DNA of 64,000 nt from Minisyncoccota bacterium (GTDB lineage: Bacteria > Patescibacteriota > Minisyncoccia > Phycocordibacterales > JAQTLZ01), in the NCBI GenBank assembly GCA_028714635.1, contig JAQTLZ010000001.1, forward strand, positions 79,650-143,649, given 5' to 3'. The notes under the pieces were generated by a model. The model was not told where the DNA came from, made no database searches, and was given only the letters and a program-made list of their open reading frames with translations. Shown here one piece after another: positions 21,233 to 49,677 of the stretch. The position numbers and the translations under genes are program-made. Position 1 is the first letter of the stretch, and each line of letters begins with the position of its first letter.

Positions 21233-22468
21233 TTAGTACACAATCGGAATCGAGATTCTCAAAGTATTGTTATTCTCACTCGATTCTCGAATGTCTCGGT
21301 CTGGATCGAGAGTGATTGTCACTGGAGCGGTGTAATTTCCTCGATAGTCATAACGATAATCGTCGTATCTGTAATCGTCTGAATAATTCGTATCTAGATT
21401 ATCAAATCCGATCGTAATGATGATTCTCTCCCCAGGTCGCAGCGACGGCTGAAGATCTGATTCGAACGAGCTGTCAGCATTGGTAGGCAAGTCCGCATTG
21501 AACGCCCATCTTCCTGTTGCAGTCCCGCCATCATTTCTTACTTCGAATTGCACTCCAACTCTCTGGTTTGAATAAAGCTGTCCTGTTGGTCGAAATGCTC
21601 CGGTGTATGGATCGACAGTACCGATGCCGATGACTCGGATAGCGAGATCGGGCAAACCATTTCCGTAATAATTATTTGCAGGAGGATAATAGACATCATT
21701 ATTTCCGTAGTAAGCGTCTCCAGTCACGCTGAAATAAACAGTGCCCGCGTTATTATCCTTTCGTGATTCAGAGACAAGACCGCCTTCATCTACGCTTATC
21801 GTTACGGGCTGTCGTCCAGAACGAATATTGTCAAAACCGACGGTAATCTGCATTTTCTCTCCGGGTGCGAGTGAGCGCTCTGTTGGTGAAGAATAAGTAT
21901 CTTTTCCAGCTACAACTGGCATAAGCATACTGAATGCCCATGCTCCGCTTGCTCGTCCGCCGGCATTTTGCACTTCAAATCTTACTGCTGCACGCTCACT
22001 CGCGTCTATCGAAGGGCGAGTGACGAATACGTTTGTGTTTCGATCGATAACTCCAGTCGCGAGAATATATAAAACCAAATCAGCCCGCGTGTTTTGATTG
22101 TAGGCAGCGACGGGTGTTGGAGTCGGCGTATAGTCGGTGGTTCCAGAATTATCCGGATAAGAAACAACAGGAGCGGGGGTTGGTGTTGGAGTGCTTACAA
22201 TAATGACGGGGGTTGGTGTTGGTGTAGAAACTGCGGGAATAGGAGTCGCTTTCGGTTTGAAAATTTTAGAGACAGACACAGAAATAGAAGCAAGGCCAGA
22301 GAAAATAGAAGGGGCTAATCTGATCACTGCCCAGCTACCTACGATGATAAGGATAATAATCAGCCCAATTACTAGGGCTTTTTTGACAAATTCTCCCGTC
22401 CCACTCTTTTTTGGGGGCTCTTCGTGGAAATTTACCTCTACATCCGGCTTATGTTCGTCGTCTTCCAT
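21233..22468 (-). CDS. N-terminally anchored surface protein with a Pro/Thr linker and two CARDB-like domains
   Basis: TM helix at residues ~30-55. PTPTPV linker. Two ~110-aa repeats ending in ESRKDNN and ESSENNN (E-x-NE-xNN-like CARDB terminal motif), each with an internal FEVxNxGG. Confidence 0.65.
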   Translation of the reverse strand: MEDDEHKPDVEVNFHEEPPKKSGTGEFVKKALVIGLIIILIIVGSWAVIRLAPSIFSGLASISVSVSKIFKPKATPIPAVSTPTPTPVIIVSTPTPTPAPVVSYPDNSGTTDYTPTPTPVAAYNQNTRADLVLYILATGVIDRNTNVFVTRPSIDASERAAVRFEVQNAGGRASGAWAFSMLMPVVAGKDTYSSPTERSLAPGEKMQITVGFDNIRSGRQPVTISVDEGGLVSESRKDNNAGTVYFSVTGDAYYGNNDVYYPPANNYYGNGLPDLAIRVIGIGTVDPYTGAFRPTGQLYSNQRVGVQFEVRNDGGTATGRWAFNADLPTNADSSFESDLQPSLRPGERIIITIGFDNLDTNYSDDYRYDDYRYDYRGNYTAPVTITLDPDRDIRESSENNNTLRISIPIVY

Positions 22469-22559
22469 ATTTCACTATTATATGATAGTATCTATTCAAT
22501 GTCAACAGTCCGACAGCATGTTCTCGTTTTTGTGTCTGATTGTGTGCTATATTTAAAAA

Positions 22560-23225
22560 ATGTCATATCAAGAGAATAACATCGTCACAGGGAGTTCATT
22601 TAAGAACAAGCTTTTGTTTCTTGGAATATTTTTCGCTGTTTTTTTCGTATCGTTCGGCATTCTCTACGCCCTGGGGTTCATTCCTCTTGAGCTTGCACCG
22701 ACGAATGAAGAGCCGTCTCTGCCAAGCCCCACTGAAAGCGTTTCAGTTTCCGGGATGTCGCCAGCACCGACGGCCTCAATGGCTACGGGTGAAGAGCCGA
22801 TCCGCATTAAAATCCCAAATATTGGAGTTGATTCTCCAATACGAAATCCTTCGACTACCGATATTGACGCGCTCGATAACGAGCTTTTGAAAGGCGTTGT
22901 GCATTATCCAGGTTCGGGATATCTGGGGCAGGGGAATATGTTTCTCTTTGGCCATGGATCAAATCTTCCTGTTATCCATAATCAAGCCTTTAAAGTATTC
23001 ACCCAGATCAAGACTTTAAAACAAGGCGATGTAATTCATGTCCTCTCGCAGACCAAAGATTATTCGTACACTGTTTCTAAAGTAACTCTTGTGGATGCAA
23101 GCAAGGTGCTTGTGGAGTTTTCTACACAAAGAAAGATGCTTACGCTCTCGACTTGCGATACTTTTGGCACAAAACAACAGCGCTATGTCGTCGAAGCCGA
23201 TTTTTCTGGGAGCACTGATCTCTAA
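22560..23225 (+). CDS. Sortase-family transpeptidase
   Basis: N-terminal TM anchor. Catalytic His in MFLFGHGSN. TLSTCD = TLxTC active-site Cys motif. Downstream Arg (QQRYVVEA). Confidence 0.75.
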   Translation: MSYQENNIVTGSSFKNKLLFLGIFFAVFFVSFGILYALGFIPLELAPTNEEPSLPSPTESVSVSGMSPAPTASMATGEEPIRIKIPNIGVDSPIRNPSTTDIDALDNELLKGVVHYPGSGYLGQGNMFLFGHGSNLPVIHNQAFKVFTQIKTLKQGDVIHVLSQTKDYSYTVSKVTLVDASKVLVEFSTQRKMLTLSTCDTFGTKQQRYVVEADFSGSTDL

Positions 23226-23346
23226 AGTTCTTTTCTCGCCACGGGAGGCCGTATTCGAGGAGAGAGCTAAATACTTGACAATAGTATCTATATACTATAT
23301 AATACAAGAGTAAGGTAATTAATTGAGCTTAAAAACGGCTTGAATT

Positions 23347-25053
23347 ATGGCTTTTTTAGGCAATTTAACATTCATGAAAAACATTTTTTCAGTAAAAGAT
23401 ACTATGTCGAAAATTTTCGCAACAGCACTTATTTTTGTTGTGGTTTTTTCCGTGTTCGCTCCTTTCGTTGCGAAAGCGGATGATTATTATGATGGAGATT
23501 GGGGAACCACCTATGATGCTGACTGGGGTACTACTTACGATGCTGATTGGGGCACAACCTATGACGCTGACTGGGGTACCACCTATGACGCGGATTGGGG
23601 CACAACCTATGATGGTGACTATGGCACTACTTACGATGCTGATTGGGGCACCTCATACGATAATAATAATTATGATTCTGGTTGTGATGATTGTAATAAC
23701 ACCTATTACGATAATAATTATGACAATGGATGTTCAGACTGTAATTCTGGCTATTATGATAATTACGATTACGGCTGTTCTTCTAACTGTTACAGTCACA
23801 ACACTGGTTGTTCATACAATTGTTATCCACCGCCACCTCCTCCACCACGTCCGACTCCGCATCCTACTCCGCATCCAACACCAACTCCTGTTCAGAATCT
23901 TTCCGTTTATTGTGTAGCGAGTGATACAAATATCCGTGTAGGAGATTCCGTAACATGGAGAGCGAATGTTTCTGGCGGTAATGGCAATTACTCATACACT
24001 TGGAGCGGAGACGCTTCCGGTTCAGGCTCTAATGTTTCGAGAACATACAATAGTTCTGGAACTAAGCGTGCAACTGTTGAAGTACGATCTGGAAATCAGG
24101 TAGAAACTGCTTCTTGTACAACTTTCGTACAGGAGGAACAAAATGACCTAGACGCATATTGTGAAGCAACTCCGAATAATGCTGACCGAAATGAAACGGT
24201 TACTTGGAGGGTATTTCCTTCTGGAGGATCAGGTTCTTACTCCTACGATTGGAGCGGAGCTGTCACAGGAGATGGAAGGACTGAACAAGAATCATATTCA
24301 AGTTCTGGTACGAAACGAGCTACGGTAGAAGTGCGATCTGGAAATCAGACGATCACCCGAAGCTGTACCACGACTATAGAAAGAAATAATAACCGTGATC
24401 TCAACTTTACTTGTGAAGCCGATAGAAATAGCGCGCGAGTAGGCGAGACTGTCCGATGGACGGCTGACGTCGAAGGGGGCGATGGAGACTATGATTATTC
24501 ATGGAGAACATCTGATAATGTCGGTAGTAAGGATAACGAAACACTTCGTACTCGATACGATTCGACAGGAACGAAAAGAGTTTCTTTGACTGTAAGATCT
24601 AATGGAGACAGCGAAACTGAAGATTGTGGATCGGTATTTATTACAGGCACACTTGGAACATCTGTAACGGTGACCAGTATACCTACTGCTCCGCTTTCAT
24701 CTGCAGTTTATCTCTCCCAGGTTCCTTACACCGGTCTTGAGCTTTCTTGGAAGCTTGTCGGATTCGTTGGAGCTCTTATTCTCTGGAGTGCATGGATCGC
24801 ATACTTCATCTTCCGAAAGAAAGTGCTTCGCGATATTGCTAAAAATAGCGCACTCGTAAGCTCTCTCGAAGAGGAAGCTCGAAAAGAGAATGTGGTTGTA
24901 TCTCAAGATGCGATCGCTTCCATTATGAAGAAAGCAAAAGCTGAAAAGGCGATTGCAAGCGAAGTTCTTAAGCGAGTTATTGCGAAAGCAAAAGCCGTTT
25001 CAGGAAACGATTCTTGGATTGCTCTCTCGAAAGAAAAACTTAATAATCTCTAA
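23347..25053 (+). CDS. Secreted repeat protein: 8x DADWGTTY octapeptide, Cys/Tyr/Asp-rich region, poly-Pro linker, three PKD-like domains, and a C-terminal sorting-signal-like anchor with a cytoplasmic tail
   Basis: Signal peptide (MSKIFATALIFVVVFSVFAPFVAKA). The PKD-like units show W..W.GD..G.Y.Y.W.......YDSTGTKRVSLTVRS with a conserved Cys pair. C-terminal VPYTGLELSWKLVGFVGALILWSAWIAYFIFRKK plus 75 aa. The start may lie at 23377 or 23407. Confidence 0.65.
   Translation: MAFLGNLTFMKNIFSVKDTMSKIFATALIFVVVFSVFAPFVAKADDYYDGDWGTTYDADWGTTYDADWGTTYDADWGTTYDADWGTTYDGDYGTTYDADWGTSYDNNNYDSGCDDCNNTYYDNNYDNGCSDCNSGYYDNYDYGCSSNCYSHNTGCSYNCYPPPPPPPRPTPHPTPHPTPTPVQNLSVYCVASDTNIRVGDSVTWRANVSGGNGNYSYTWSGDASGSGSNVSRTYNSSGTKRATVEVRSGNQVETASCTTFVQEEQNDLDAYCEATPNNADRNETVTWRVFPSGGSGSYSYDWSGAVTGDGRTEQESYSSSGTKRATVEVRSGNQTITRSCTTTIERNNNRDLNFTCEADRNSARVGETVRWTADVEGGDGDYDYSWRTSDNVGSKDNETLRTRYDSTGTKRVSLTVRSNGDSETEDCGSVFITGTLGTSVTVTSIPTAPLSSAVYLSQVPYTGLELSWKLVGFVGALILWSAWIAYFIFRKKVLRDIAKNSALVSSLEEEARKENVVVSQDAIASIMKKAKAEKAIASEVLKRVIAKAKAVSGNDSWIALSKEKLNNL
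23494..23660 (+). repeat. Seven to eight tandem 24-bp coding repeats (GAYGCNGAYTGGGGNACNACNTAY)
   Basis: Read directly: gat/gac tggggnacnac(c/t)ta(t/c)ga(t/c)gc(t/g) iterated. Wobble positions differ between copies. Confidence 0.85.
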
Positions 25054-35397: not shown

Positions 35398-36300
35398 ATG
35401 GCCAATAGGCACCTTTCCAGAAGTATAGTGATGCAGTCCATGTTTGAAATGGATTTCAGAGGACTTCCTGCCTCTGATGCATCTGCCGTGCTCGAAAGAA
35501 ATGCCGAAGAGTTTGCCCCTGGGATGGGAGATTTTTCATTTATGAAATCTCTCACTCAGCATATTCTCGAAAAGAAAAAAGATATTGACGCGATTATTGA
35601 AAAAGCGGCGCCGGACTGGCCGATAGATAAAATTTCAATCGTAGATAGAAATATTCTCCGCATCGGACTTTACGAACTTCTTTTTTCAGATCGCGGAGAA
35701 GTGCCGGCAAAAGTTGCTATCAATGAATCGATCGAGCTTGCAAAAACATTCGGCGGAGAGACATCGGGCAAATTTGTAAACGGAGTCTTGGGCGCAGTTT
35801 ATAAAGAACTTGGTGAGCCGGGTAAAGACGAAACGTCAAAGAAGAAAAAAGACGAGGTGCCGGATGACAAAGCGCCCATTGAAAAGCTTGGCGGAGCAGT
35901 CGTCTATATGAAAAAGGGGAACCAGATGTATCTCGCTTTTGTCCACGATATTTTCAAACACTGGACGCTTTCGAAAGGTAAACTTGAATCGGGTGAGGAC
36001 GATGAAAAAGCAACTTGTCGAGAGATAAAAGAAGAAATGGGAGTCGATATTGATATCAAACAAAAACTTGGCGAGAATTCCTACATTACCTACAACAAAG
36101 AAAAGAAAAAGATTAGAAAATCAGTTGTTTATTTTCTCGCAGAATGCACTTCTCCGTTTGAAACTTTGAAATTGCAGAAACTTGGCGGGTTGGATGATGC
36201 AAAATGGTTTCCTCTTGAAAAAATCGGCGAGCTCACGCTCTACGATGATCTCGTTCCTATTATCACCAAAGCAGTGAATATCTTATTGAAGGCAAAATAA
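35398..36300 (+). CDS. NusB-like antitermination domain fused to a C-terminal NUDIX hydrolase domain
   Basis: N-terminus [19 protein letters not shown]...[10 protein letters not shown] is a NusB/RsmB-N pattern. C-terminus [23 protein letters not shown] fits the Nudix box Gx5Ex7REUxEExGU exactly. Confidence 0.7.
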
Positions 36301-36304
36301 TTCT

Positions 36305-36991
36305 ATGGATTTAGGCGTTTTTGAAAAAAAAATTGGAGTAACATTTCAAAACAAAGAGCTTCTCAAACAAGCTTTTATTCATCGTTCCTATTTGAATGAA
36401 AATCGCTCTCTTAAAATGGCTCACAACGAACGACTGGAATTTTTGGGTGACGCAGTGCTTGAGCTTATCGTGACCGAATATCTTTATCACAAATATCCCG
36501 ACAATCAAGAAGGCGATCTTACTTCCTATCGAGCATCTCTTGTGAACGCAGTGACGCTTTCTGGCGTTGCAGAGTCCCTAGGTTTCAACGATTATCTTCT
36601 TCTTTCGAAAGGCGAAGCGAGAGATACCGGCCGAGCGCGACAATCAATCTTGGCAGATACCATGGAATCTGTGATCGGAGCAATTTATATTGACCAAGGA
36701 TACGAAGTAGCAAAACAATTTATCTCAGAAAATATTTTCGGTCTCATTGATTCGATTGTCGCGCAAGGTGCCTGGATCGATGCAAAAAGCCGTTTTCAGG
36801 AATTGGCACAAGAAAAAACAGGAGTCACGCCTGCGTATAAAACCATCCGAGAATCAGGACCAGATCACGATAAACATTTTCTCATCGGTGTCTATCTCAA
36901 TGAAGCATGCCTCGCTGAAGGAGAGGGGAAGTCAAAGCAAGAAGCTGAGCAAAAAGCGGCTGAAGGAGCACTCAAGACCAGCGGATGGTAA
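36305..36991 (+). CDS. rnc: Ribonuclease III
   Basis: ERLEFLGDAVLELIVTEYLY is the RNase III signature. dsRBD at the C-terminus. Confidence 0.9.
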   Translation: MDLGVFEKKIGVTFQNKELLKQAFIHRSYLNENRSLKMAHNERLEFLGDAVLELIVTEYLYHKYPDNQEGDLTSYRASLVNAVTLSGVAESLGFNDYLLLSKGEARDTGRARQSILADTMESVIGAIYIDQGYEVAKQFISENIFGLIDSIVAQGAWIDAKSRFQELAQEKTGVTPAYKTIRESGPDHDKHFLIGVYLNEACLAEGEGKSKQEAEQKAAEGALKTSGW

Positions 36992-37108: not shown

Positions 37109-37534
37109 TCAAAGCGGTTGAAAATATGCCGCGTTGACGTAAGAGGAATTCTCGCCGGAGTCGCGGAAATCCTTCCCGTCTTTGTTTGCGATGAGGAAAC
37201 ATTGCTCTCTTCCTTTTCCAGTCGCAAATAAGACTTTGTACGGAGGCGGTCCAATCTCGGCGAGAATCGCCGACTGCACAGGCTCGACTGTCCTCTCCAT
37301 TATTCTTGAGATGGAAGCGAGCTCCGGGCTCCAATCCACCAACCTGACGACAACTTCTCCGGGCGATTCCTCTTCCGGCGGTACAATTCGAAGAAGAGGT
37401 TGCTCGTGTTTCTGACTTTGAGCTTTTTGAGTTAAGCCGATGCCGACGGCTTTCCTCTGACCTTTTCCGCGAACGCGCTTTTCTTTAGCCACTCCTTTTT
37501 TAGAGGAGCAGCTCCGATCCGTGACTGTACTCAT
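37109..37534 (-). CDS. Hypothetical basic protein (GC-rich) preceded by a G10 tract
   Basis: 141 aa with a Lys/Arg-rich N-terminus. On the minus strand the start region reads GGGGGGGGGGAACAATG. About 52% GC. Confidence 0.45.
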   Translation of the reverse strand: MSTVTDRSCSSKKGVAKEKRVRGKGQRKAVGIGLTQKAQSQKHEQPLLRIVPPEEESPGEVVVRLVDWSPELASISRIMERTVEPVQSAILAEIGPPPYKVLFATGKGREQCFLIANKDGKDFRDSGENSSYVNAAYFQPL

Positions 37535-37538
37535 TGTT

Positions 37539-37548
37539 CCCCCCCCCC
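37539..37548. repeat. Homopolymeric C10 (G10 on the coding strand) tract 4 nt upstream of a start codon
   Basis: Counted directly: ten consecutive C at 37539-37548. Confidence 0.9.
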
Positions 37549-37666
37549 TTGTAACCCAAGAACTCCAATTTCCCGTCTATCATTAGATACTTTTTTCTGT
37601 TTTTGTCAATCTACTCTCGGTATAACTTGTTTTGAAACACAGTAAAAAAATGCTACATTTATAGCC

Positions 37667-39934
37667 ATGTATTTAAAATCGCTTGAGATTTCTGGCTTTA
37701 AATCTTTCGGGAAGAAAAGCACGCTGGATTTCAATTCACCGATTGCCTCTATTGTGGGTCCCAACGGCTCTGGAAAATCAAACATCGCCGAAGCGTTTCG
37801 GTTTGTTTTGGGCGAGCAGTCTATCAAATCAATGCGAGGCAAGCGCGGGGAAGACCTCATTTTTAACGGCACAAAAGAAGCCGGGCGACAGAATCGCGCT
37901 AGCGTAAAAGTGGTTTTTGATAATCGGAAACGTGTTTTGGATATTGATTTTGACGATGTTTCGATCGAGCGCGTAGTTCATCGAGATGGGGTGAATGAAT
38001 ACCTCATCAATGGTTCAGCTGTGCGCCTCAGAGATATTATTGAGATTTTAGCGAAAGCGCATATCGGCTCATCTGGCCACCACATCATTTCCCAAGGCGA
38101 AGCGGACAGGATTTTGAACGCAAATTTAAAGGAACGTCGCGAGATGGTTGAGGATGCGCTTGGACTTAAAATTTATCAATACAAACGAGCAGAAAGCGAG
38201 CGGAAACTCGAAAAGACAGAAGAAAATATTAAATCAGTTGAGTCGCTTCGCCGAGAAATCACTCCGCATCTCACTTTTTTGAAAAAGCAGGTTGAGAAGG
38301 TTGAGAAAGCGCTGGTGATGAAAGATGAGCTCACGAATCTGTATCTCGAATATTTCAAACGAGAAGATGCATATTTGAAACATGAAAAAAAGACTTTGGG
38401 AGATGCAAAGCGTGGCCCGACTGAAGCTCTCGCAAAACTCGAACGCGAGCTTGGATCTGCAAAGGCTGTACTTTCTGAATCTGGTACTAAAGACAAGAAA
38501 AGCAATGAGTTGGTATCTCTTGAAGGAAAGATCCGGATTGTCCGGGAAAATCTGGATGTTCTTTCCCGTTCGCTCGGACGACTTGAAGGAAATATTTCTG
38601 CGGAAGAAAGGCGTAGAGAGAAAGCTAAACACGCGCTTGGAAATGCTGATGAGAAATTGGTGCATCTCAAAGATGTCGAAGATTTGAGTAAAAAAATTGA
38701 TGAAACTTTGCGTGAGGCAGAGGGAAGTGAAGATCTGTCAAAGGTGCGAGGAATTTTGAAAAGTATCCGAGATATTTTCGCTCGATTTATTTCAGACAAA
38801 AAACAAGGAGGTGCGCCGAAAGAAATTGAAGATGCCGAGGCTGAATTAACACGGCTGAATTCTGAAAAGAAGGGCATCGAAGTAGAGATCGAAAAAGACA
38901 AAAAGGAAGAAGCGGGGTATCACAAAGCTTACGAAACGCTCAAAAATGACATTGAAAAGGAAAAAGATTCGAGCCGGGATGCCGAGAAAGCGATTTTCAA
39001 GATCATGGCCGAGCAGAATCAGATTCATGGGGAACTCAGCGTACTTAAGGTGCGGGAAGAACTGTATCATCATGATGAAGAAGATTTTAAGCGTGAACTT
39101 GGGGAAGCGGGGCATCTTGTGGGGCGGGCAATTGTTGAGTACGAAAATTTCAAAATAGAGGGAGAGGTGCTTGAGACTGAAAGATCTGGACAACAAGAAC
39201 GTCGAAAGAGAATTGAAAAAATTAAAGTACGTCTGGAAGACGCAGGAGGAGGCGGAGCAGATGATATTATGAAAGAATTTCGTGAAGTATCCGAGCGCGA
39301 AGCTTTTTTGACCCGTGAGCTCGAAGATCTTAAAAAGTCCTCTGCATCGCTTGAAATTCTCATTAAAGAGCTTGAACAGCGTCTTGATATTGAATTCAAA
39401 GAGGGAGTCTTAAAAATTAACAAGCAATTCCAGGAATTTTTCGCGCTTATGTTTGGAGGTGGAACGGCAGCGCTTGAGGTGGTTCGAGAAGTGAAGAGAA
39501 AGAAAGCTTTGACGGATTTAGATTTGGAAGGAATGGATGAAGTGCCAGAAGAAATGGGCGATCCTGAAGAGGAAGGAAAAGAAGGAATTGATATTTCCGT
39601 AACCCTTCCGCACAAGAAAGTGAAAGGATTGACGATGCTTTCCGGAGGCGAGCGAGCGCTTACTTCCATCGCCCTTATTTTTGCGGTCTCTCAAGTGAAT
39701 CCTCCGCCATTCATTATTCTTGACGAAACAGACGCCGCGCTCGATGAAGCAAATTCAAAAAAATACGGAGATATGATCGAAAATCTTTCGAAATATTCCC
39801 AGCTTATTCTCATCACTCACAATCGAGAGACAATGTCTCGTGCCGGAATTCTTTATGGGATCACAATGGGTTCTGACGGTATCTCAAAGCTTCTCTCTAT
39901 TGCTTTTGAAGAAGCAGCAGCTGTCGCTAAATAA
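37667..39934 (+). CDS. smc: SMC-family chromosome condensation ATPase, unusually short (755 aa) with no obvious hinge domain
   Basis: The N-terminus MYLKSLEISGFKSFGKKSTLDF...GPNGSGKSNIAEAFRFVLGEQSIKSMRG is near-identical in pattern to canonical SMC. The C-terminus LSGGERALTSIALIFA...ILDETDAALDEAN is the signature motif plus Walker B. Only ~500 aa of coiled coil lie between them. Confidence 0.7.
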   Translation: MYLKSLEISGFKSFGKKSTLDFNSPIASIVGPNGSGKSNIAEAFRFVLGEQSIKSMRGKRGEDLIFNGTKEAGRQNRASVKVVFDNRKRVLDIDFDDVSIERVVHRDGVNEYLINGSAVRLRDIIEILAKAHIGSSGHHIISQGEADRILNANLKERREMVEDALGLKIYQYKRAESERKLEKTEENIKSVESLRREITPHLTFLKKQVEKVEKALVMKDELTNLYLEYFKREDAYLKHEKKTLGDAKRGPTEALAKLERELGSAKAVLSESGTKDKKSNELVSLEGKIRIVRENLDVLSRSLGRLEGNISAEERRREKAKHALGNADEKLVHLKDVEDLSKKIDETLREAEGSEDLSKVRGILKSIRDIFARFISDKKQGGAPKEIEDAEAELTRLNSEKKGIEVEIEKDKKEEAGYHKAYETLKNDIEKEKDSSRDAEKAIFKIMAEQNQIHGELSVLKVREELYHHDEEDFKRELGEAGHLVGRAIVEYENFKIEGEVLETERSGQQERRKRIEKIKVRLEDAGGGGADDIMKEFREVSEREAFLTRELEDLKKSSASLEILIKELEQRLDIEFKEGVLKINKQFQEFFALMFGGGTAALEVVREVKRKKALTDLDLEGMDEVPEEMGDPEEEGKEGIDISVTLPHKKVKGLTMLSGGERALTSIALIFAVSQVNPPPFIILDETDAALDEANSKKYGDMIENLSKYSQLILITHNRETMSRAGILYGITMGSDGISKLLSIAFEEAAAVAK

Positions 39935-39976
39935 TACTCGCTTTTAGGCCCAAAATCGGCTAGAATCTACGCCTAA

Positions 39977-41551
39977 ATGTTTTCACCTGCTATACAAAGG
40001 CTTGTAGACGATCTTAAGCACCAGTCGGGGAAAACTGGCTCTTTCGGTGGTTCTAGCGATGCTTTTATTAAGGTCAATAAATTAACGGGAAAAGCCGGCG
40101 CTTTTTATGAAAAAGTGCGCTATTTTGTTGATTATAAAGAAGAACATACGATTCGCCGTTCTGCAATCGAAAGAATCATCAAGCGAAAAGTGATGATCGA
40201 GATCGATAATAACGTCGGTCTTTCTCTTCTCGAAGAGTTGGTTGGCGGGGGATATTTGCCGAACGATCGCGTGGGCGCGGATGTTGCAAAAGACATTCAG
40301 CGAATCTTGAATAGATTTCTTATCGTCAAAAAACATATTGGCCCAAAACTGCTTCGGAATTTGAAATTAAAAAGCCGTCTCATTAATCTCGCAGCAACCG
40401 AAATAGATCTCTTCTTGTTTCCGCGTCCCAACGACAATCTTCTTGTCGAGGCTTTTTATTCGACTGTCAAAGGCTCAATAAAATATTCAGGCGAGCTTTC
40501 CAATATGCAATTCGGCAGACAACTTTATATTGCGTGCCGTCGCCTGCTTCTTCAAGATGATGATCCGACTGTCTTTTATGCGCTTTGGCTGAAATCTGTC
40601 CCGGAATGGCCGGTTATTTCCAGTGAAGCGGATTTGCAAAAACTGAACATCGATTTTTTCGTGCTCATCAAAAATATTATCCTTGAAATCGAAGATCCTA
40701 TCCGTTTTCAGATCCAAGCGAAGCTTCGAAATCACGGGCTCTATTTTTCGGTGCTCAAAGAAATTATCGATAAATACGGCGCTGAAAGCGAGCAGGTTTT
40801 GTCCGATAAGCACCATCTTGACGGCGATATTTCTGAAGTTCTCGATAAAAAATACAAAAAAGAAAATAACCGCATCAAAAAAAGCGGGAAGCGCGCTATC
40901 GTATATGTTTTTTGCACTAAAATCATTCTGGCATTTCTCCTTGAGTTGCCGTATGAACTTTTCTACATCCACTCTGTCAATTATGTTGCATTCGTAACTA
41001 ATATTCTTTTTCACCCGTTTCTCCTCTTTCTGATGACTAGAAATATAAAACCTCTCGGTGAGAAAAATACGAAAAAAATTACCGAGGGAATTCACAAGGT
41101 CCTCTATTCGAGCGATGTGAAGAAAATGTACGTAAAACCCTCAACATCCGGCATTCTTCTCGATACGACATTTTTCTTGCTTTACGGACTTCTTTTCCTT
41201 GTAAGTTTCGGCTGTATTTTGTGGGTCCTCCTGTCTCTCGGATTCAATGTTGTCGGTATTTTACTTTTCTTAACCTTCCTTACATTTGTCAGTTATTTCG
41301 GCCTGCGTATCCGCTACAATGCAGAAAGATGGAGGATTCGGGACGAAGACGAAAAAACCCTGACTCTTCTTTGGAATGTTTTTACTTTTCCGATCGTGCG
41401 AATGGGCAGATGGCTTTCTGTGAAATTTGCTTCAGTAAATGTCTTCGTCTTTGTGATGGATTTTCTTATTGAAGTGCCGTTCAAGCTTGTGCTCGCTACG
41501 TCAGACGGGTTTCTCTCATTCTTGAAAGAAAAACGCGACGAGACGTATTAA
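39977..41551 (+). CDS. Hypothetical protein, soluble N-terminal domain (~290 aa) plus a C-terminal multi-TM domain
   Basis: 524-aa ORF 42 nt after smc. At least five hydrophobic helices in the last 230 aa. No motif recognised. Confidence 0.45.
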   Translation: MFSPAIQRLVDDLKHQSGKTGSFGGSSDAFIKVNKLTGKAGAFYEKVRYFVDYKEEHTIRRSAIERIIKRKVMIEIDNNVGLSLLEELVGGGYLPNDRVGADVAKDIQRILNRFLIVKKHIGPKLLRNLKLKSRLINLAATEIDLFLFPRPNDNLLVEAFYSTVKGSIKYSGELSNMQFGRQLYIACRRLLLQDDDPTVFYALWLKSVPEWPVISSEADLQKLNIDFFVLIKNIILEIEDPIRFQIQAKLRNHGLYFSVLKEIIDKYGAESEQVLSDKHHLDGDISEVLDKKYKKENNRIKKSGKRAIVYVFCTKIILAFLLELPYELFYIHSVNYVAFVTNILFHPFLLFLMTRNIKPLGEKNTKKITEGIHKVLYSSDVKKMYVKPSTSGILLDTTFFLLYGLLFLVSFGCILWVLLSLGFNVVGILLFLTFLTFVSYFGLRIRYNAERWRIRDEDEKTLTLLWNVFTFPIVRMGRWLSVKFASVNVFVFVMDFLIEVPFKLVLATSDGFLSFLKEKRDETY

Positions 41552-45380: not shown

Positions 45381-46436
45381 ATGAAATTATTTCTTGAAGA
45401 CGGGTCATCATACGAAGGAAAAAGCTTTGGCGCACCAGTTTCGATGAACGGCGAAGTAGTTTTTAATACGAGCATGGTTGGATATGTGGAAAGTCTGACC
45501 GACCCGTCCTATGCAGGCCAAATTCTCGTCTGTACCTATCCGCTCATTGGAAATTACGGCGTACCAAGTTCTTCTTTGTTCGAATCAAAAAAAATTCAAA
45601 TTGCCGGACTTGTAGTATCGGAATATTCAGAAAATTATTCGCACCACGAAGCGAAACAATCTCTCGCAGAGTGGCTCAAAAAAGCTAAAATCCCGGCAAT
45701 TACCGGAGTCGATACGCGCGCAATCACCAAAAAACTTCGCGAACGCGGAGTGATGCTTGGTGCGCTTGCCGAAGAAGTGCCGAAAAAATTTACCGATCCG
45801 AATGAAGAAAATCTTGTCGCAAAAGTTTCCACAAAAGAGAAACAAAAATATGGCTCGGGCAAGATAAAAATCATTGCTATTGATTGCGGAATGAAAGAAA
45901 ATATCGCACGCTCTCTTGCCCGCGACGGTGTTACCGTTGTTCGCGTGCCCTGGAATTATGATTTTACGAAAGAAAAATATGACGCCCTTTTTATTTCCAA
46001 TGGTCCCGGCGATCCCGCGATGTGCACAACGACAATTGAGAATATCCAAAAGGCGATGAAAATGAAAAAGCCAATCCTCGGTATTTGTCTTGGAAACCAG
46101 CTTCTCGCCCTTGCTTCAGGCGGGAAGACGTTCAAATTAAAATATGGACATCGCTCGCAAAATCAGCCTTGCACGGACCTCCTCACAGGAAGGTGCTATA
46201 TCACTTCGCAGAATCATGGATTTGCGGTAAACGCAAAAAGTCTGCCGAAAGATTGGAAGGTGTGGTTTACCAACGCGAATGATGGAAGTGTGGAGGGTAT
46301 TATGCACAAATCTCTCCCTTTTCGAGCCGTTCAATTTCATCCGGAAGCAGCACCGGGTCCGACAGATACCGCGTGGATCTTCGATGAATTTTTAAATTCG
46401 ATCAAGATTCACCCGCCAAAGTTTTCGGGTGCATAA
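45381..46436 (+). CDS. carA: Carbamoyl-phosphate synthase small (glutamine amidotransferase) subunit
   Basis: [36 protein letters not shown] (CPSase small N-domain). [15 protein letters not shown] (GATase Cys triad). HGFAV...FHPEA. Confidence 0.9.
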
Positions 46437-46518
46437 ATAAAAATCCTTAATCAATTAATCCAATTTTCTATAAAGATTTAATGTGTTACAAGTCATAGTA
46501 GAAAATTTCGGCGGGTAA

Positions 46519-49500
46519 ATGAAAAAGAATCATAAAATAAAATCAATACTTCTTCTTGGTTCCGGCGGACTCAAAATCGGCCAAGCGGGAGAATTTGATT
46601 ATTCCGGCTCACAGGCGATCAAAGCATTCAAAGAAGACGGCCTTCGAGTGGTCCTCATGAATCCAAATATCGCGACAGTTCAAACCGATGAAGGATTTGC
46701 CGATAAAGTGTATTTTCTCCCGCTCACTTTGGAATATGCTGAGAAAATAATTGCCGATGAGCGCCCCGATGCCATCGCCCTTTCTTTTGGCGGACAGACG
46801 GCGCTGAACCTCGGACTCGAACTTGAAGAAAGCGGAATTTTGGAAAAATATAAAGTGATCGTGTTGGGAACTCCAACTTCAGCTATTCGCGATACGGAAG
46901 ACCGCGCCCTTTTTACGGAACGCTTGAAAGAAATTGATGTTCACACGGCGAGAAGTTTTGCCACATCGAATACGAAAGAAGCCCTTGAAGCTGGCAAGAA
47001 AATCGGCTTTCCGCTCATGATGCGCTCTGGTTTTGCTTTGGGTGGCGAGGGTTCAGGGATGATAAAAAATCAAAAAGACCTTGAGATAAAAACGAAAGAA
47101 GTATTTCGCTCTGTCTCACAAGTTCTCATCGAAGAATATCTTGGCGGATGGAAAGAAGTTGAATATGAAGTGGTGCGGGATGTGTCTGACAACTGCATCA
47201 CTGTTTGTAATATGGAAAATGTCGATCCGATGGGAATTCACACAGGCGAATCAATCGTAGTTGCGCCATCGCAAACGCTTTCCAATCGCGAGTACCATAT
47301 GCTTCGCGAAGTGGCTATCAAAACGATCCGCCATCTTGGAATTGTTGGTGAATGCAATATTCAATACGCTCTCAATCCTGAAACGAGCGAGTATAGGGTC
47401 ATTGAAGTGAATGCTCGGCTTTCGCGCTCTTCCGCTCTCGCTTCGAAAGCAACTGGATACCCGCTCGCATTCGTCGCCGCAAAACTTATTTTGGGATACA
47501 CCTTGCCCGAGCTTAAAAACAATGTAACGAAAAGTACGACTGCATGCTTTGAACCAGCGCTCGATTATCTCGTCATGAAAATTCCGCGGTGGGATTTGGC
47601 GAAATTTGAAAATGCCGCGACGCGTATCGGCACGGAGATGAAAAGCGTCGGGGAAGTGATGGCGATCGGAAGAAGTTTTGAGGAAGTGCTTCAGAAGGGG
47701 ATTCGGTCGCTGAATATCGGTGCAGATGGTTTTACCGCCCAGCATAATGGGGGATTTATAATCGCTGATGTTGAGGGAGAGATACGCGAGCCGACCACAC
47801 GAAGAATTTTTGCGATTGCTCAAGCACTCCGTTCGGGCATGAGCGTTGCGAGAATCCATGAACTTTCAAAGATCGACAAGTGGTTTCTCGAAAAAATGAA
47901 AAATATCATTCTCACAGAGGAGAAGATACAAGAGGCCAGGAAACTCGATGACACTCTTTTGAAGGAAGCGAAACAGAACGGATTTTCTGATCTCCAGATC
48001 GCAACTCTTCACAAAACTACGGAAGAAAGAATCCGTACCATTCGAAAAGGCAGAAAAATTCTGCCGGTTGTAAAACAGATCGATACCCTTGCCGGAGAAT
48101 TTCCCGCGCGGACAAATTATTTGTATGTGACTTACCATGGTACGGAAGATGACGTAAAACCTGGGAAGCGGGAGATCGCTGTTATTGGAAGCGGGCCATA
48201 TTGTATCGGATCTTCGGTTGAATTTGATTGGTCATGCGTGCAGGTTTTGAAAACACTTCGCAAAGAAAAACGCCAGACTGTGATGATAAATTGCAATCCC
48301 GAAACGGTTTCCACTGATTATGATGAATCGGATCGGCTTTATTTCGAAGAACTTACGCTTGAGCGAGTGCTCGATATCGCGGATTTTGAAAAACTTGAAG
48401 GAATTGTAGTTTCTACTGGCGGGCAGATCGCCAATAACCTTGCGCTTCTGCTCAAAAATAACGGCTTGAAAATTCTCGGCACCTCTCCCGATGATATTGA
48501 TAGAGCGGAAGATAGGCACACATTCTCAAAACTTCTTGATCTTCATGAAGTTGATCAACCGCAGTGGATCGAGGCAACCAACAGAGAAAAGGCGCTTCGC
48601 TATGCGAGTGAATTTGGCTATCCCGTTTTGGTCCGGCCTTCATATGTGCTTTCCGGTTCGGCTATGAGTGTTGCTTATGATGAGCAGTCTCTTATTCAAT
48701 GTTTGGCAAAAGCGGCCGATATTTCAAGTGATCATCCTGTAGTCATTTCAAAATTTATCGAGAACGCACGCGAGATAGAAATCGATGGCGTTGCACAAAA
48801 CGGAAAACTTGTCATTTATGCCATTACCGAACACGTGGAAAATGCCGGCACTCACTCCGGTGATGCTACAATTGTGCTCCCTCCTCAACGCACCTTCCTT
48901 GAGACAGTGAGGCGCGCTAAAAAAATTACAAAAGCGGTGATTGCCGAGCTTGAAATTACCGGTCCATTTAATATTCAATTTTTGGCAAAAGATAATCGTA
49001 TTCAGGTTATTGAATGCAACGTCCGGGCTTCGAGAAGTTTTCCATTTGTTTCAAAAGCTACTGGATATAATTTTATCGAAATTGCCACTCGGGCAATGCT
49101 CGGGAAGGATGTGCGCGGGGAATATAAAACGCTGGACCTTGATCATGTGGTTGTAAAGTCACCCCAATTTTCATACGGACGCATCAAAGGCGCTGATCCG
49201 ATCGGTTATGTGGAGATGGGTTCGACGGGAGAGGTGGCCTGTTTCGGAGATTCATTTGGAGAAGCACTTATTTCTTCAATGCAGGCATCGGGAATGCGGC
49301 TGCCGAAGAAAAATGTGCTCATCTCGCTCGGCAAGGAAGAAAATAAAATAAAACTTTTGTCGGCGCTTCACTTGCTTGCACAGCTTGGACTTACTCTTTA
49401 TGCGACGGAACATACCGCTGATTTTTTGAATGAGCAGAATATAAAATGCGAAAAAGTTTTTAAAATTCACACCGGTTCAACTCCGAATGTGCTCTCGCTT

Positions 49501-49677
49501 ATTGAAGGCGGGAATCTTGACCTTATTATTAATATTCCGGCCCGAGCACTTTCCCGCGAACGCGAAGACGGCTTTATCATCAGACGCAAAGCGATTGATC
49601 ACAATATTCCTCTTATCACCAATCGCCAGCTTGCCGAGGCTTTTATCGTCGCGCTTGCGGAGAAACACAAGAAATAA
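46519..49677 (+). CDS. carB: Carbamoyl-phosphate synthase large subunit
   Basis: LLLGSGGLKIGQAGEFDYSGSQA with a duplicated ATP-grasp (second copy IAVIGSGPYCIGSSVEFDWS). MGS-like C-terminal domain. Confidence 0.9.
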   Translation: MKKNHKIKSILLLGSGGLKIGQAGEFDYSGSQAIKAFKEDGLRVVLMNPNIATVQTDEGFADKVYFLPLTLEYAEKIIADERPDAIALSFGGQTALNLGLELEESGILEKYKVIVLGTPTSAIRDTEDRALFTERLKEIDVHTARSFATSNTKEALEAGKKIGFPLMMRSGFALGGEGSGMIKNQKDLEIKTKEVFRSVSQVLIEEYLGGWKEVEYEVVRDVSDNCITVCNMENVDPMGIHTGESIVVAPSQTLSNREYHMLREVAIKTIRHLGIVGECNIQYALNPETSEYRVIEVNARLSRSSALASKATGYPLAFVAAKLILGYTLPELKNNVTKSTTACFEPALDYLVMKIPRWDLAKFENAATRIGTEMKSVGEVMAIGRSFEEVLQKGIRSLNIGADGFTAQHNGGFIIADVEGEIREPTTRRIFAIAQALRSGMSVARIHELSKIDKWFLEKMKNIILTEEKIQEARKLDDTLLKEAKQNGFSDLQIATLHKTTEERIRTIRKGRKILPVVKQIDTLAGEFPARTNYLYVTYHGTEDDVKPGKREIAVIGSGPYCIGSSVEFDWSCVQVLKTLRKEKRQTVMINCNPETVSTDYDESDRLYFEELTLERVLDIADFEKLEGIVVSTGGQIANNLALLLKNNGLKILGTSPDDIDRAEDRHTFSKLLDLHEVDQPQWIEATNREKALRYASEFGYPVLVRPSYVLSGSAMSVAYDEQSLIQCLAKAADISSDHPVVISKFIENAREIEIDGVAQNGKLVIYAITEHVENAGTHSGDATIVLPPQRTFLETVRRAKKITKAVIAELEITGPFNIQFLAKDNRIQVIECNVRASRSFPFVSKATGYNFIEIATRAMLGKDVRGEYKTLDLDHVVVKSPQFSYGRIKGADPIGYVEMGSTGEVACFGDSFGEALISSMQASGMRLPKKNVLISLGKEENKIKLLSALHLLAQLGLTLYATEHTADFLNEQNIKCEKVFKIHTGSTPNVLSLIEGGNLDLIINIPARALSREREDGFIIRRKAIDHNIPLITNRQLAEAFIVALAEKHKK

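Follow-up and report, generated by a model that had tools for sequence, protein, structure and literature searches.

Current models treat the hinge of SMC (structural maintenance of chromosomes) proteins as their constitutive dimerisation site and as an element for DNA binding and DNA entry. Burmann et al. 2017 described natural arm-length modes of 238, 341 and 515 amino acids (aa) and two minor ones of 163 and 423 aa, using a pipeline that needed the hinge to be aligned, and found engineered Smc to be functional only at discrete arm lengths (PMC5344682). Sussfeld et al. 2025 reported 'hinge-less' SMCs in ocean metagenomes, attributed them to Actinomycetes and presented them as a new kind of biology (PMC12153180). 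In the literature on SMC, the hinge and the Candidate Phyla Radiation (CPR), Patescibacteria or Parcubacteria, we found no report of a hinge-less SMC in CPR bacteria. Here, we analysed a 64,000-nucleotide (nt) stretch of a Minisyncoccota genome (contig JAQTLZ010000001.1, positions 79,650 to 143,649; hereafter the window), which carries a gene for a 755-aa SMC protein followed, 42 nt downstream, by a gene for a 524-aa membrane protein. The 755-aa protein is a natural SMC without a hinge, and its gene is the orthologous smc of this genome. We consider it probable that an orthologous Paceibacteria smc has had its hinge cleanly removed and works as condensin with ScpA and ScpB, the 524-aa gene being unrelated to it.

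The smc open reading frame (ORF) and its parts are as follows, with positions in the window and residue numbers of the 755-aa protein.
37667-39934 (+): smc, hinge-less SMC of 755 aa, from the ORF, head motifs and family match
aa 1-~165: N-head
aa 168-380: N-arm
aa 381-384: turn at the tip of the coiled-coil hairpin
38801-38830 (+): tip region, aa 379-388, KQGGAPKEIE
aa 385-596: C-arm with the joint
39149-39256 (+): C-arm joint, aa 495-530, including the GGGG loop at 527-530
aa 597-755: C-head

An initial annotation of this locus, made from the sequence alone, had given the lengths of both ORFs and their spacing exactly and had recognised the SMC head motifs. These are a Walker A motif GPNGSGKS at aa 31-38, the signature LSGGE at aa 658-662 and a Walker B motif FIILDETDAALD at aa 682-693, all invariant across the members of the SMC family, and the protein matches Pfam SMC_N at 2.6e-66. 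The heads are separated by ~430 residues rather than by the ~500 first proposed. The top NCBIfam match was SMC_prok_B (TIGR02168; 1.7e-154) at 516.3 bits, below the equivalog cutoff of 567.35, and this shortfall is consistent with ~430 missing residues. The heads, joint included, align to Bacillus subtilis Smc at 1.8e-85, and the best fold match of the AlphaFold2 (AF2) model was 5xei (Smc head, coiled coil and joint; E 2.9e-23). The short length is not an assembly artefact, since every one of the best 120 homologue clusters, at 59-94% identity and drawn from independent assemblies, has a length of 742-795 aa; a further 27 short SMCs (670-804 aa) were found in metagenome loci.

To model the 755-aa SMC, AF2 was run with 51 homologues. 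The prediction shows an unbroken helical stretch over aa 168-596 with no beta strands (predicted local distance difference test, pLDDT, 72.5), in which the chain reverses at aa 381-384 and thereby defines two arms of 213 and 212 aa, or ~30 nm. Local helix breaks are paired across these arms, N 272-276 with C 486-506 and N 327-333 with C 431-436. The Pfam hinge domain PF06470 (SMC_hinge) matched none of the 51 SMC family members at E<=1, and the central 217 aa of the protein had no match among PDB sequences at E<=10. Furthermore, a custom hinge hidden Markov model (HMM) was built from 17 canonical SMCs of the metagenome loci. All 17 canonical SMCs held out as a positive control were recovered by it (E 4e-15 to 1e-101), and it also detects the hinge in SMCs of 977-1094 aa. 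Among 78 short SMCs (27 from metagenome loci and the 51 family members), the same model found nothing better than E 0.2 (3.6 bits). The absence of a recognisable hinge, as noted earlier from the letters of the sequence, is therefore borne out by Pfam, PDB, the custom HMM and the AF2 model alike, and the hinge-less Smc is lineage-wide in Paceibacteria.

A short-armed relative indicates where the hinge would have been. In the 977-aa SMC of locus L130 (contig OCVV011062400.1), a hinge of ~215 aa lies at residues 384-599. BLASTP aligns residues 1-369 of the 755-aa SMC with residues 1-367 of this protein, and residues 379-748 with 586-976. Because the arms align colinearly in this way, the L130 hinge maps to the tip of the 755-aa SMC, between residues 369 and 379, and its removal looks like a clean excision in the aligned sequences. 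The 755-aa SMC contains no cysteine anywhere and thus no CxxC motif, so that it also lacks a zinc hook. Colinear NCBIfam and PDB alignments of residues 1-478 with SMC residues 1-486, which would imply a full-length N-arm, were rejected, because they are driven by coiled-coil composition and are contradicted by the symmetry of the arms and by L130.

Short SMCs of 670-804 aa in which the hinge was not detected also occur at loci L115, L117, L118, L120, L123, L125-L127 and L138, where they are 31-36% identical to the 755-aa SMC; hinge loss may extend well beyond its family. The SMCs of L121, L135 and L167 (931, 1090 and 906 aa) gave no match to the hinge HMM either and may represent further hinge-less or hinge-divergent lineages; for L121, a mis-called start codon is an alternative.

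The stretch GGGGAD (aa 527-532) had been put forward as a hinge-like remnant. In the alignment with B. subtilis Smc (5xg3), the GGGG loop at aa 527-530 is matched by the segment EELGTVNLGSIDEFERV, and this segment belongs to the 'joint', where the C-terminal Smc helix has a conserved, head-proximal interruption (PMC5526789). AF2 predicts helix-loop repeats over the same region. Since it is aligned with a conserved joint loop, the GGGG loop is not a remnant of the hinge.

Across the family, the arms have almost no insertions or deletions (indels), and where length does vary, it is at the N-terminus, at the joint loop (after residue 499) and in a C-head loop (614-632). Sequence variability is highest in the distal arms and at the tip, with an entropy of 2.2-3.0 bits versus 0.55-0.73 bits for the heads. 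A semi-conserved motif, F374-[IV]-x-x-[NH]-[KR]-[TS], stands right before the turn. We also observed a strongly conserved island in the C-arm, EKEKDSNRDAEKA (~aa 429-442, nt ~38951-38992; entropy 0.66 bits), which faces the conserved N-arm break at 327-333, ~50 residues below the tip, and for which a role as an elbow-like element or as a binding site is conceivable.

The position of the gene was compared in a sample of 80 SMC-centred metagenome loci. In most of these, rnc lies immediately upstream of smc, whether smc is short or canonical (1186 aa), and in the window smc likewise directly follows rnc. Because rnc precedes canonical and short smc alike, the short gene is the smc ortholog by position as well. 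Relatives keep a gene cluster dnaE(-)/rnhB/rpmF/nusB-NUDIX/rnc/smc/rnr(-), and the window as a whole is housekeeping DNA with rpsB, tsf, pheST, gyrB, thrS, dnaE, rnhB, a nusB-NUDIX fusion, rnc, RNase R, rpsP, carAB, trmD and rpoB. The nearest homologues of both proteins are labelled Candidatus Pacebacteria or Paceibacterota, which places the window in a CPR bacterium.

ScpA and ScpB were first sought with B. subtilis sequences, and the matches were then confirmed independently by Pfam. In ~1.35 Mb of Paceibacteria loci, one scpA-scpB operon was found, at the Taylorbacteria locus L039 (20045-21388, minus strand; SMC_ScpA 5.4e-19, SMC_ScpB 6.6e-38). Homologues are abundant, the best 120 clusters being 238-282 aa long with PF02616. 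The 340,823-bp contig JAXOUH010013645.1 carries both parts, a 763-aa SMC with 63% identity to ours at ~117 kb and scpA-scpB at ~315 kb, the latter followed by genes for a D-Ala-D-Ala carboxypeptidase, mraY, ftsW and murG. ScpA and ScpB thus exist in Paceibacteria, away from smc. In B. subtilis, smc (in rnc-smc-ftsY) is also unlinked to scpAB, and for this reason the lack of scpAB downstream of smc, which the initial annotation had correctly seen but read as unexpected, is not anomalous. At L039 (19011-21388) and L098 (4001-8744), scpA-scpB are followed by the D-Ala-D-Ala carboxypeptidase (S11) gene, and the gene order at L098 (S11, mraY, ftsW, murG) places the condensin accessory genes at the head of a cell-wall/division cluster. 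A lead in the Lipocone paper was set aside, since the gene inserted there between scpA and scpB is a different one.

The features next to smc, together with the 524-aa gene, are listed here.
36305-36991 (+): rnc (RNase III; TIGR02191 1.8e-78), conserved neighbour upstream of smc
37632-37659 (+): promoter-like site TTGAAA-16-TACATT with TG (extended -10), a consensus match only
39977-41551 (+): 524-aa polytopic membrane protein of an uncharacterised Paceibacteria family

The promoter-like site stops 7 nt 5' of the smc ATG. Before smc, at 37632-37667, no Shine-Dalgarno sequence can be made out, and the smc mRNA may therefore be leaderless. Between smc and the 524-aa gene there is no terminator, and the two are probably co-transcribed here, as a mere result of the local order of genes.

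The 524-aa protein consists of an all-alpha, soluble N-terminal domain and five or six C-terminal transmembrane helices, in agreement with the initial annotation, with hydrophobic segments at ~306-326, 334-354, 390-446 and 480-509. AF2 gave a confident, all-alpha model (pLDDT 82.9; predicted template modelling score, pTM, 0.80). The protein had no match in Pfam, NCBIfam, PADLOC or PDB sequences, a Foldseek search of the model against PDB gave no match (best E 2.4), and Pfam at E<=1 returned only scattered noise for all 62 family members. Its family comprises 1034 representatives at 50% identity (E<=0.001), of which the top 150 are ~400-600 aa long, most of them 510-560 aa. Invariant residues are Y44, E45, R48 and R66 in the soluble domain and K315, E323, N342, D495 and E499 in or near the membrane. 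Together with the transmembrane helices, the latter set suggests that the protein is a transporter, a channel or a membrane enzyme.

In 80 species-representative genomes carrying the 524-aa gene, it adjoins smc in a single one (L018, 80% identical); at one other of these loci, smc lies 6.7 kb away on the opposite strand. The gene sits between rnhB and rpmF or nusB at L011 and L019, in one of these relatives four genes upstream of smc, between rnhB and rpmF. Elsewhere it stands beside secA, transketolase, gdh and others, and clustering of the neighbours at the 80 family loci revealed no conserved partner, the commonest being glutamate dehydrogenase (12 of 80). Conversely, no 524-aa gene was present within 7 kb of smc in any of the 80 SMC-centred metagenome loci, nor at four further SMC loci (L015-L017 and L099). 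The pair is therefore a clade-specific accident of gene order, and the 524-aa protein is unrelated to the SMC system.

Many species-representative metagenome-assembled genomes of L019-L097 with a Paceibacteria-type gene of this family are titled 'uncultured Candidatus Saccharibacteria', L051 is titled Gammaproteobacteria and L090 Pseudobdellovibrionaceae. These titles are probably taxonomic mislabels, or the contigs were mis-binned.

Several other features of the window were recorded. A single ORF at 35398-36300 (+) encodes NusB fused to a NUDIX hydrolase domain, and this fusion precedes rnc in every Paceibacteria locus examined. Between rnc and smc lies an ORF of 141 aa without a family match (37109-37534, minus strand), and a run of ~9 C (G on the minus strand) at 37539-37548 stands just upstream of its ATG; this run is possibly a slippage-prone homopolymer or possibly a G-rich ribosome-binding site. 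A complete carA-carB pair (carbamoyl-phosphate synthase) is present at 45381-49677 (+), which is notable because CPR bacteria are usually sparse in biosynthesis. At 21233-25053, genes for surface proteins with CARDB domains and PKD/SprB repeats lie on either side of a sortase gene, likely a sortase-substrate cell-surface module.

In the preferred explanation, the protein has kept its ABC-type ATPase head intact, along with the neck, the joint and an antiparallel hairpin of ~212 aa ending in a four-residue turn. It would most likely still act as the prokaryotic condensin alongside ScpA (kleisin) and ScpB (kite), which, judging from relatives, should be encoded elsewhere in this genome. Two subunits may be held together by packing of their distal coiled coils or of the semi-conserved tip (F-I-x-x-N-K-T), as in RecN; since arm length is almost free of indels in the family, the tip appears to have a job. 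The 524-aa gene encodes a lineage-specific membrane protein with a cytoplasmic helical domain of ~300 aa and would have reached its place beside smc by local rearrangement in a narrow clade. Several findings weigh against parts of this explanation. When the window was searched in six frames for matches to Paceibacteria ScpA and ScpB, neither was found. The AF2 model of the SMC is only moderately confident, with a pTM of 0.38 beside the pLDDT of 72.5. At 0.26-0.34, the distal arms do not exceed a two-stranded coiled coil in hydrophobic content, and hence there is no positive sign of a four-helix dimer interface. In addition, relatives with as little as 62% identity still have the smc/524-aa pair, which together with the probable co-transcription makes a clade-specific functional link possible.

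The alternatives differ in which of these observations they take up. The initial annotation had proposed a reduced condensin with a novel membrane-tethering partner, in which the 524-aa protein replaces ScpA and ScpB. Adjacency on the same strand, at 42 nt and with no terminator between, conservation of the pair in the closest relatives (L018 included) and the fact that both families are typical of Paceibacteria would all fit, but the membrane gene adjoins smc in only one of the 80 species genomes that carry it, is absent near smc in each of the 80 metagenome loci and at L015-L017 and L099, sits elsewhere in the same gene cluster at L011 and L019, and has no conserved neighbour at all, while ScpA and ScpB are present in the lineage. 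With scpAB found elsewhere in the lineage and the 524-aa gene unlinked in relatives, we regard such a tethered system as very unlikely; what stands of the earlier reading is a real, reduced, hinge-less SMC. Its other suggestion, given equal weight, was an SMC-like system of another kind. An ATPase of RecN-like repair, Lamassu LmuB, MADS-type defence or Rad50/SbcC would account for the PADLOC matches (mad3 4e-58, LmuB 1.8e-17), for the resemblance of a hinge-less hairpin to RecN or Rad50 and for the SMC_prok_B score under its cutoff. The PADLOC matches are, however, confined to the shared head, recN (TIGR00634) scores 39.4 bits versus a cutoff of 407.85, and the Rad50 models stay below 50 bits versus cutoffs of at least 700. 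There is no CxxC motif, and the flanking ORFs tested include no defence or nuclease partner genes in what is a housekeeping neighbourhood. The canonical rnc-smc position is retained, the Smc joint is present, and a short SMC shares a contig (JAXOUH010013645.1) with scpAB. We therefore judge this second suggestion improbable, if a little less so than the tethered condensin.

The possibility that the ORF is a fragment, left by truncation or mis-assembly of a full-length smc, had also been raised and has next to no likelihood: nothing other than the short length speaks for it, and both head halves are complete in a single ORF, the arms are equally long (213 and 212 aa), and the 120 best homologue clusters (742-795 aa) and the 27 further metagenome SMCs are all short. 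The manner of dimerisation is a more balanced matter. Instead of meeting at their tips, two subunits could be held at the heads only, by ATP engagement and ScpA bridging, to form an open clamp and not a closed ring. This picture agrees with the tip and distal arms being the least conserved parts (2.2-3.0 bits), with the lack of an extra hydrophobic seam at the heptad level and with the missing hook motif. Against it stand the nearly indel-free arm length in the family and the semi-conserved tip motif F-[IV]-x-x-N-[KR]-T. Moreover, in engineered B. subtilis Smc (PMC5344682, PMC6969161), the Rad50 zinc hook, a dimerisation module in its own right, could take the place of the hinge, reportedly with function retained. 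Because no extra hydrophobic seam is seen and the support for the tip is indirect, the open clamp stays a serious alternative, possible although not the outcome we expect.

Returning to the hinge-less condensin with ScpAB, Paceibacteria, and perhaps other CPR bacteria with SMCs of 670-800 aa, might conceivably run their only Smc-ScpAB condensin without a hinge or a hook, a proposal that we advance tentatively. If it is true, and if dimerisation at the tip is weak or missing, the organisation of DNA by SMC proteins would need neither a closed, hinge-bounded ring nor contacts between hinge and DNA. It would also provide a natural minimal system for testing loop-extrusion models: a natural hinge-less ortholog of smc, with ScpAB co-occurring in relatives and with head, neck and joint retained. 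As a small construct of 755 aa already tested by evolution, it could serve to examine the need for the hinge, the tuning of arm length and chromosome folding in small-genome bacteria. Proteins of this family are annotated as 'AAA family ATPase' and fall below the SMC equivalog cutoff, so that surveys could score condensin as absent in CPR bacteria.

A comparison with known systems separates the 755-aa SMC from the more distant SMC-like ATPases. With the defence ATPases (Lamassu LmuB, MADS mad3, Wadjet JetC and Gabija GajA), it shares only the head, and no partner genes were found in the flanking ORFs tested. Rad50/SbcC possesses a CxxC zinc hook and the partner Mre11/SbcD, whereas our protein lacks cysteine and has no adjoining nuclease gene. 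RecN, which dimerises through its distal coiled coil, likewise combines an SMC-like head with a short coiled-coil hairpin that has no hinge; it differs in its weak similarity (39 bits versus a cutoff of 408), and the 755-aa protein has the Smc joint and the smc locus. Engineered mini-Smc and zinc-hook chimeras resemble it in their shortened arms, but they keep a dimerisation module, while it has none that is recognisable. Its arm of ~212 aa lies between the natural modes of 163 and 238 aa (PMC5344682). The short-armed SMC of L130 has arms colinear with it and retains the ~215-aa hinge.

The cluster of Sussfeld et al. (PMC12153180) is alike in its SMC head, its coiled-coil hairpin and the absence of both hinge and CxxC. 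In contrast to that cluster, the present lineage belongs to the CPR Paceibacteria, with orthology supported by synteny and with ScpAB co-occurring in relatives. In comparison with Smc-ScpAB of B. subtilis and other bacteria, the 755-aa SMC lacks the hinge, its arms measure ~212 versus ~344 aa and its total length is 755 versus ~1186 aa, giving a hairpin of ~30 nm versus ~47-50 nm in canonical Smc. At the same time, it has in common with Smc-ScpAB the ABC head with Walker A, Walker B and signature, the residues R57 and Q143, a neck, a joint and an antiparallel arm, as well as the gene order rnc-smc, and ScpA and ScpB are encoded in its lineage.

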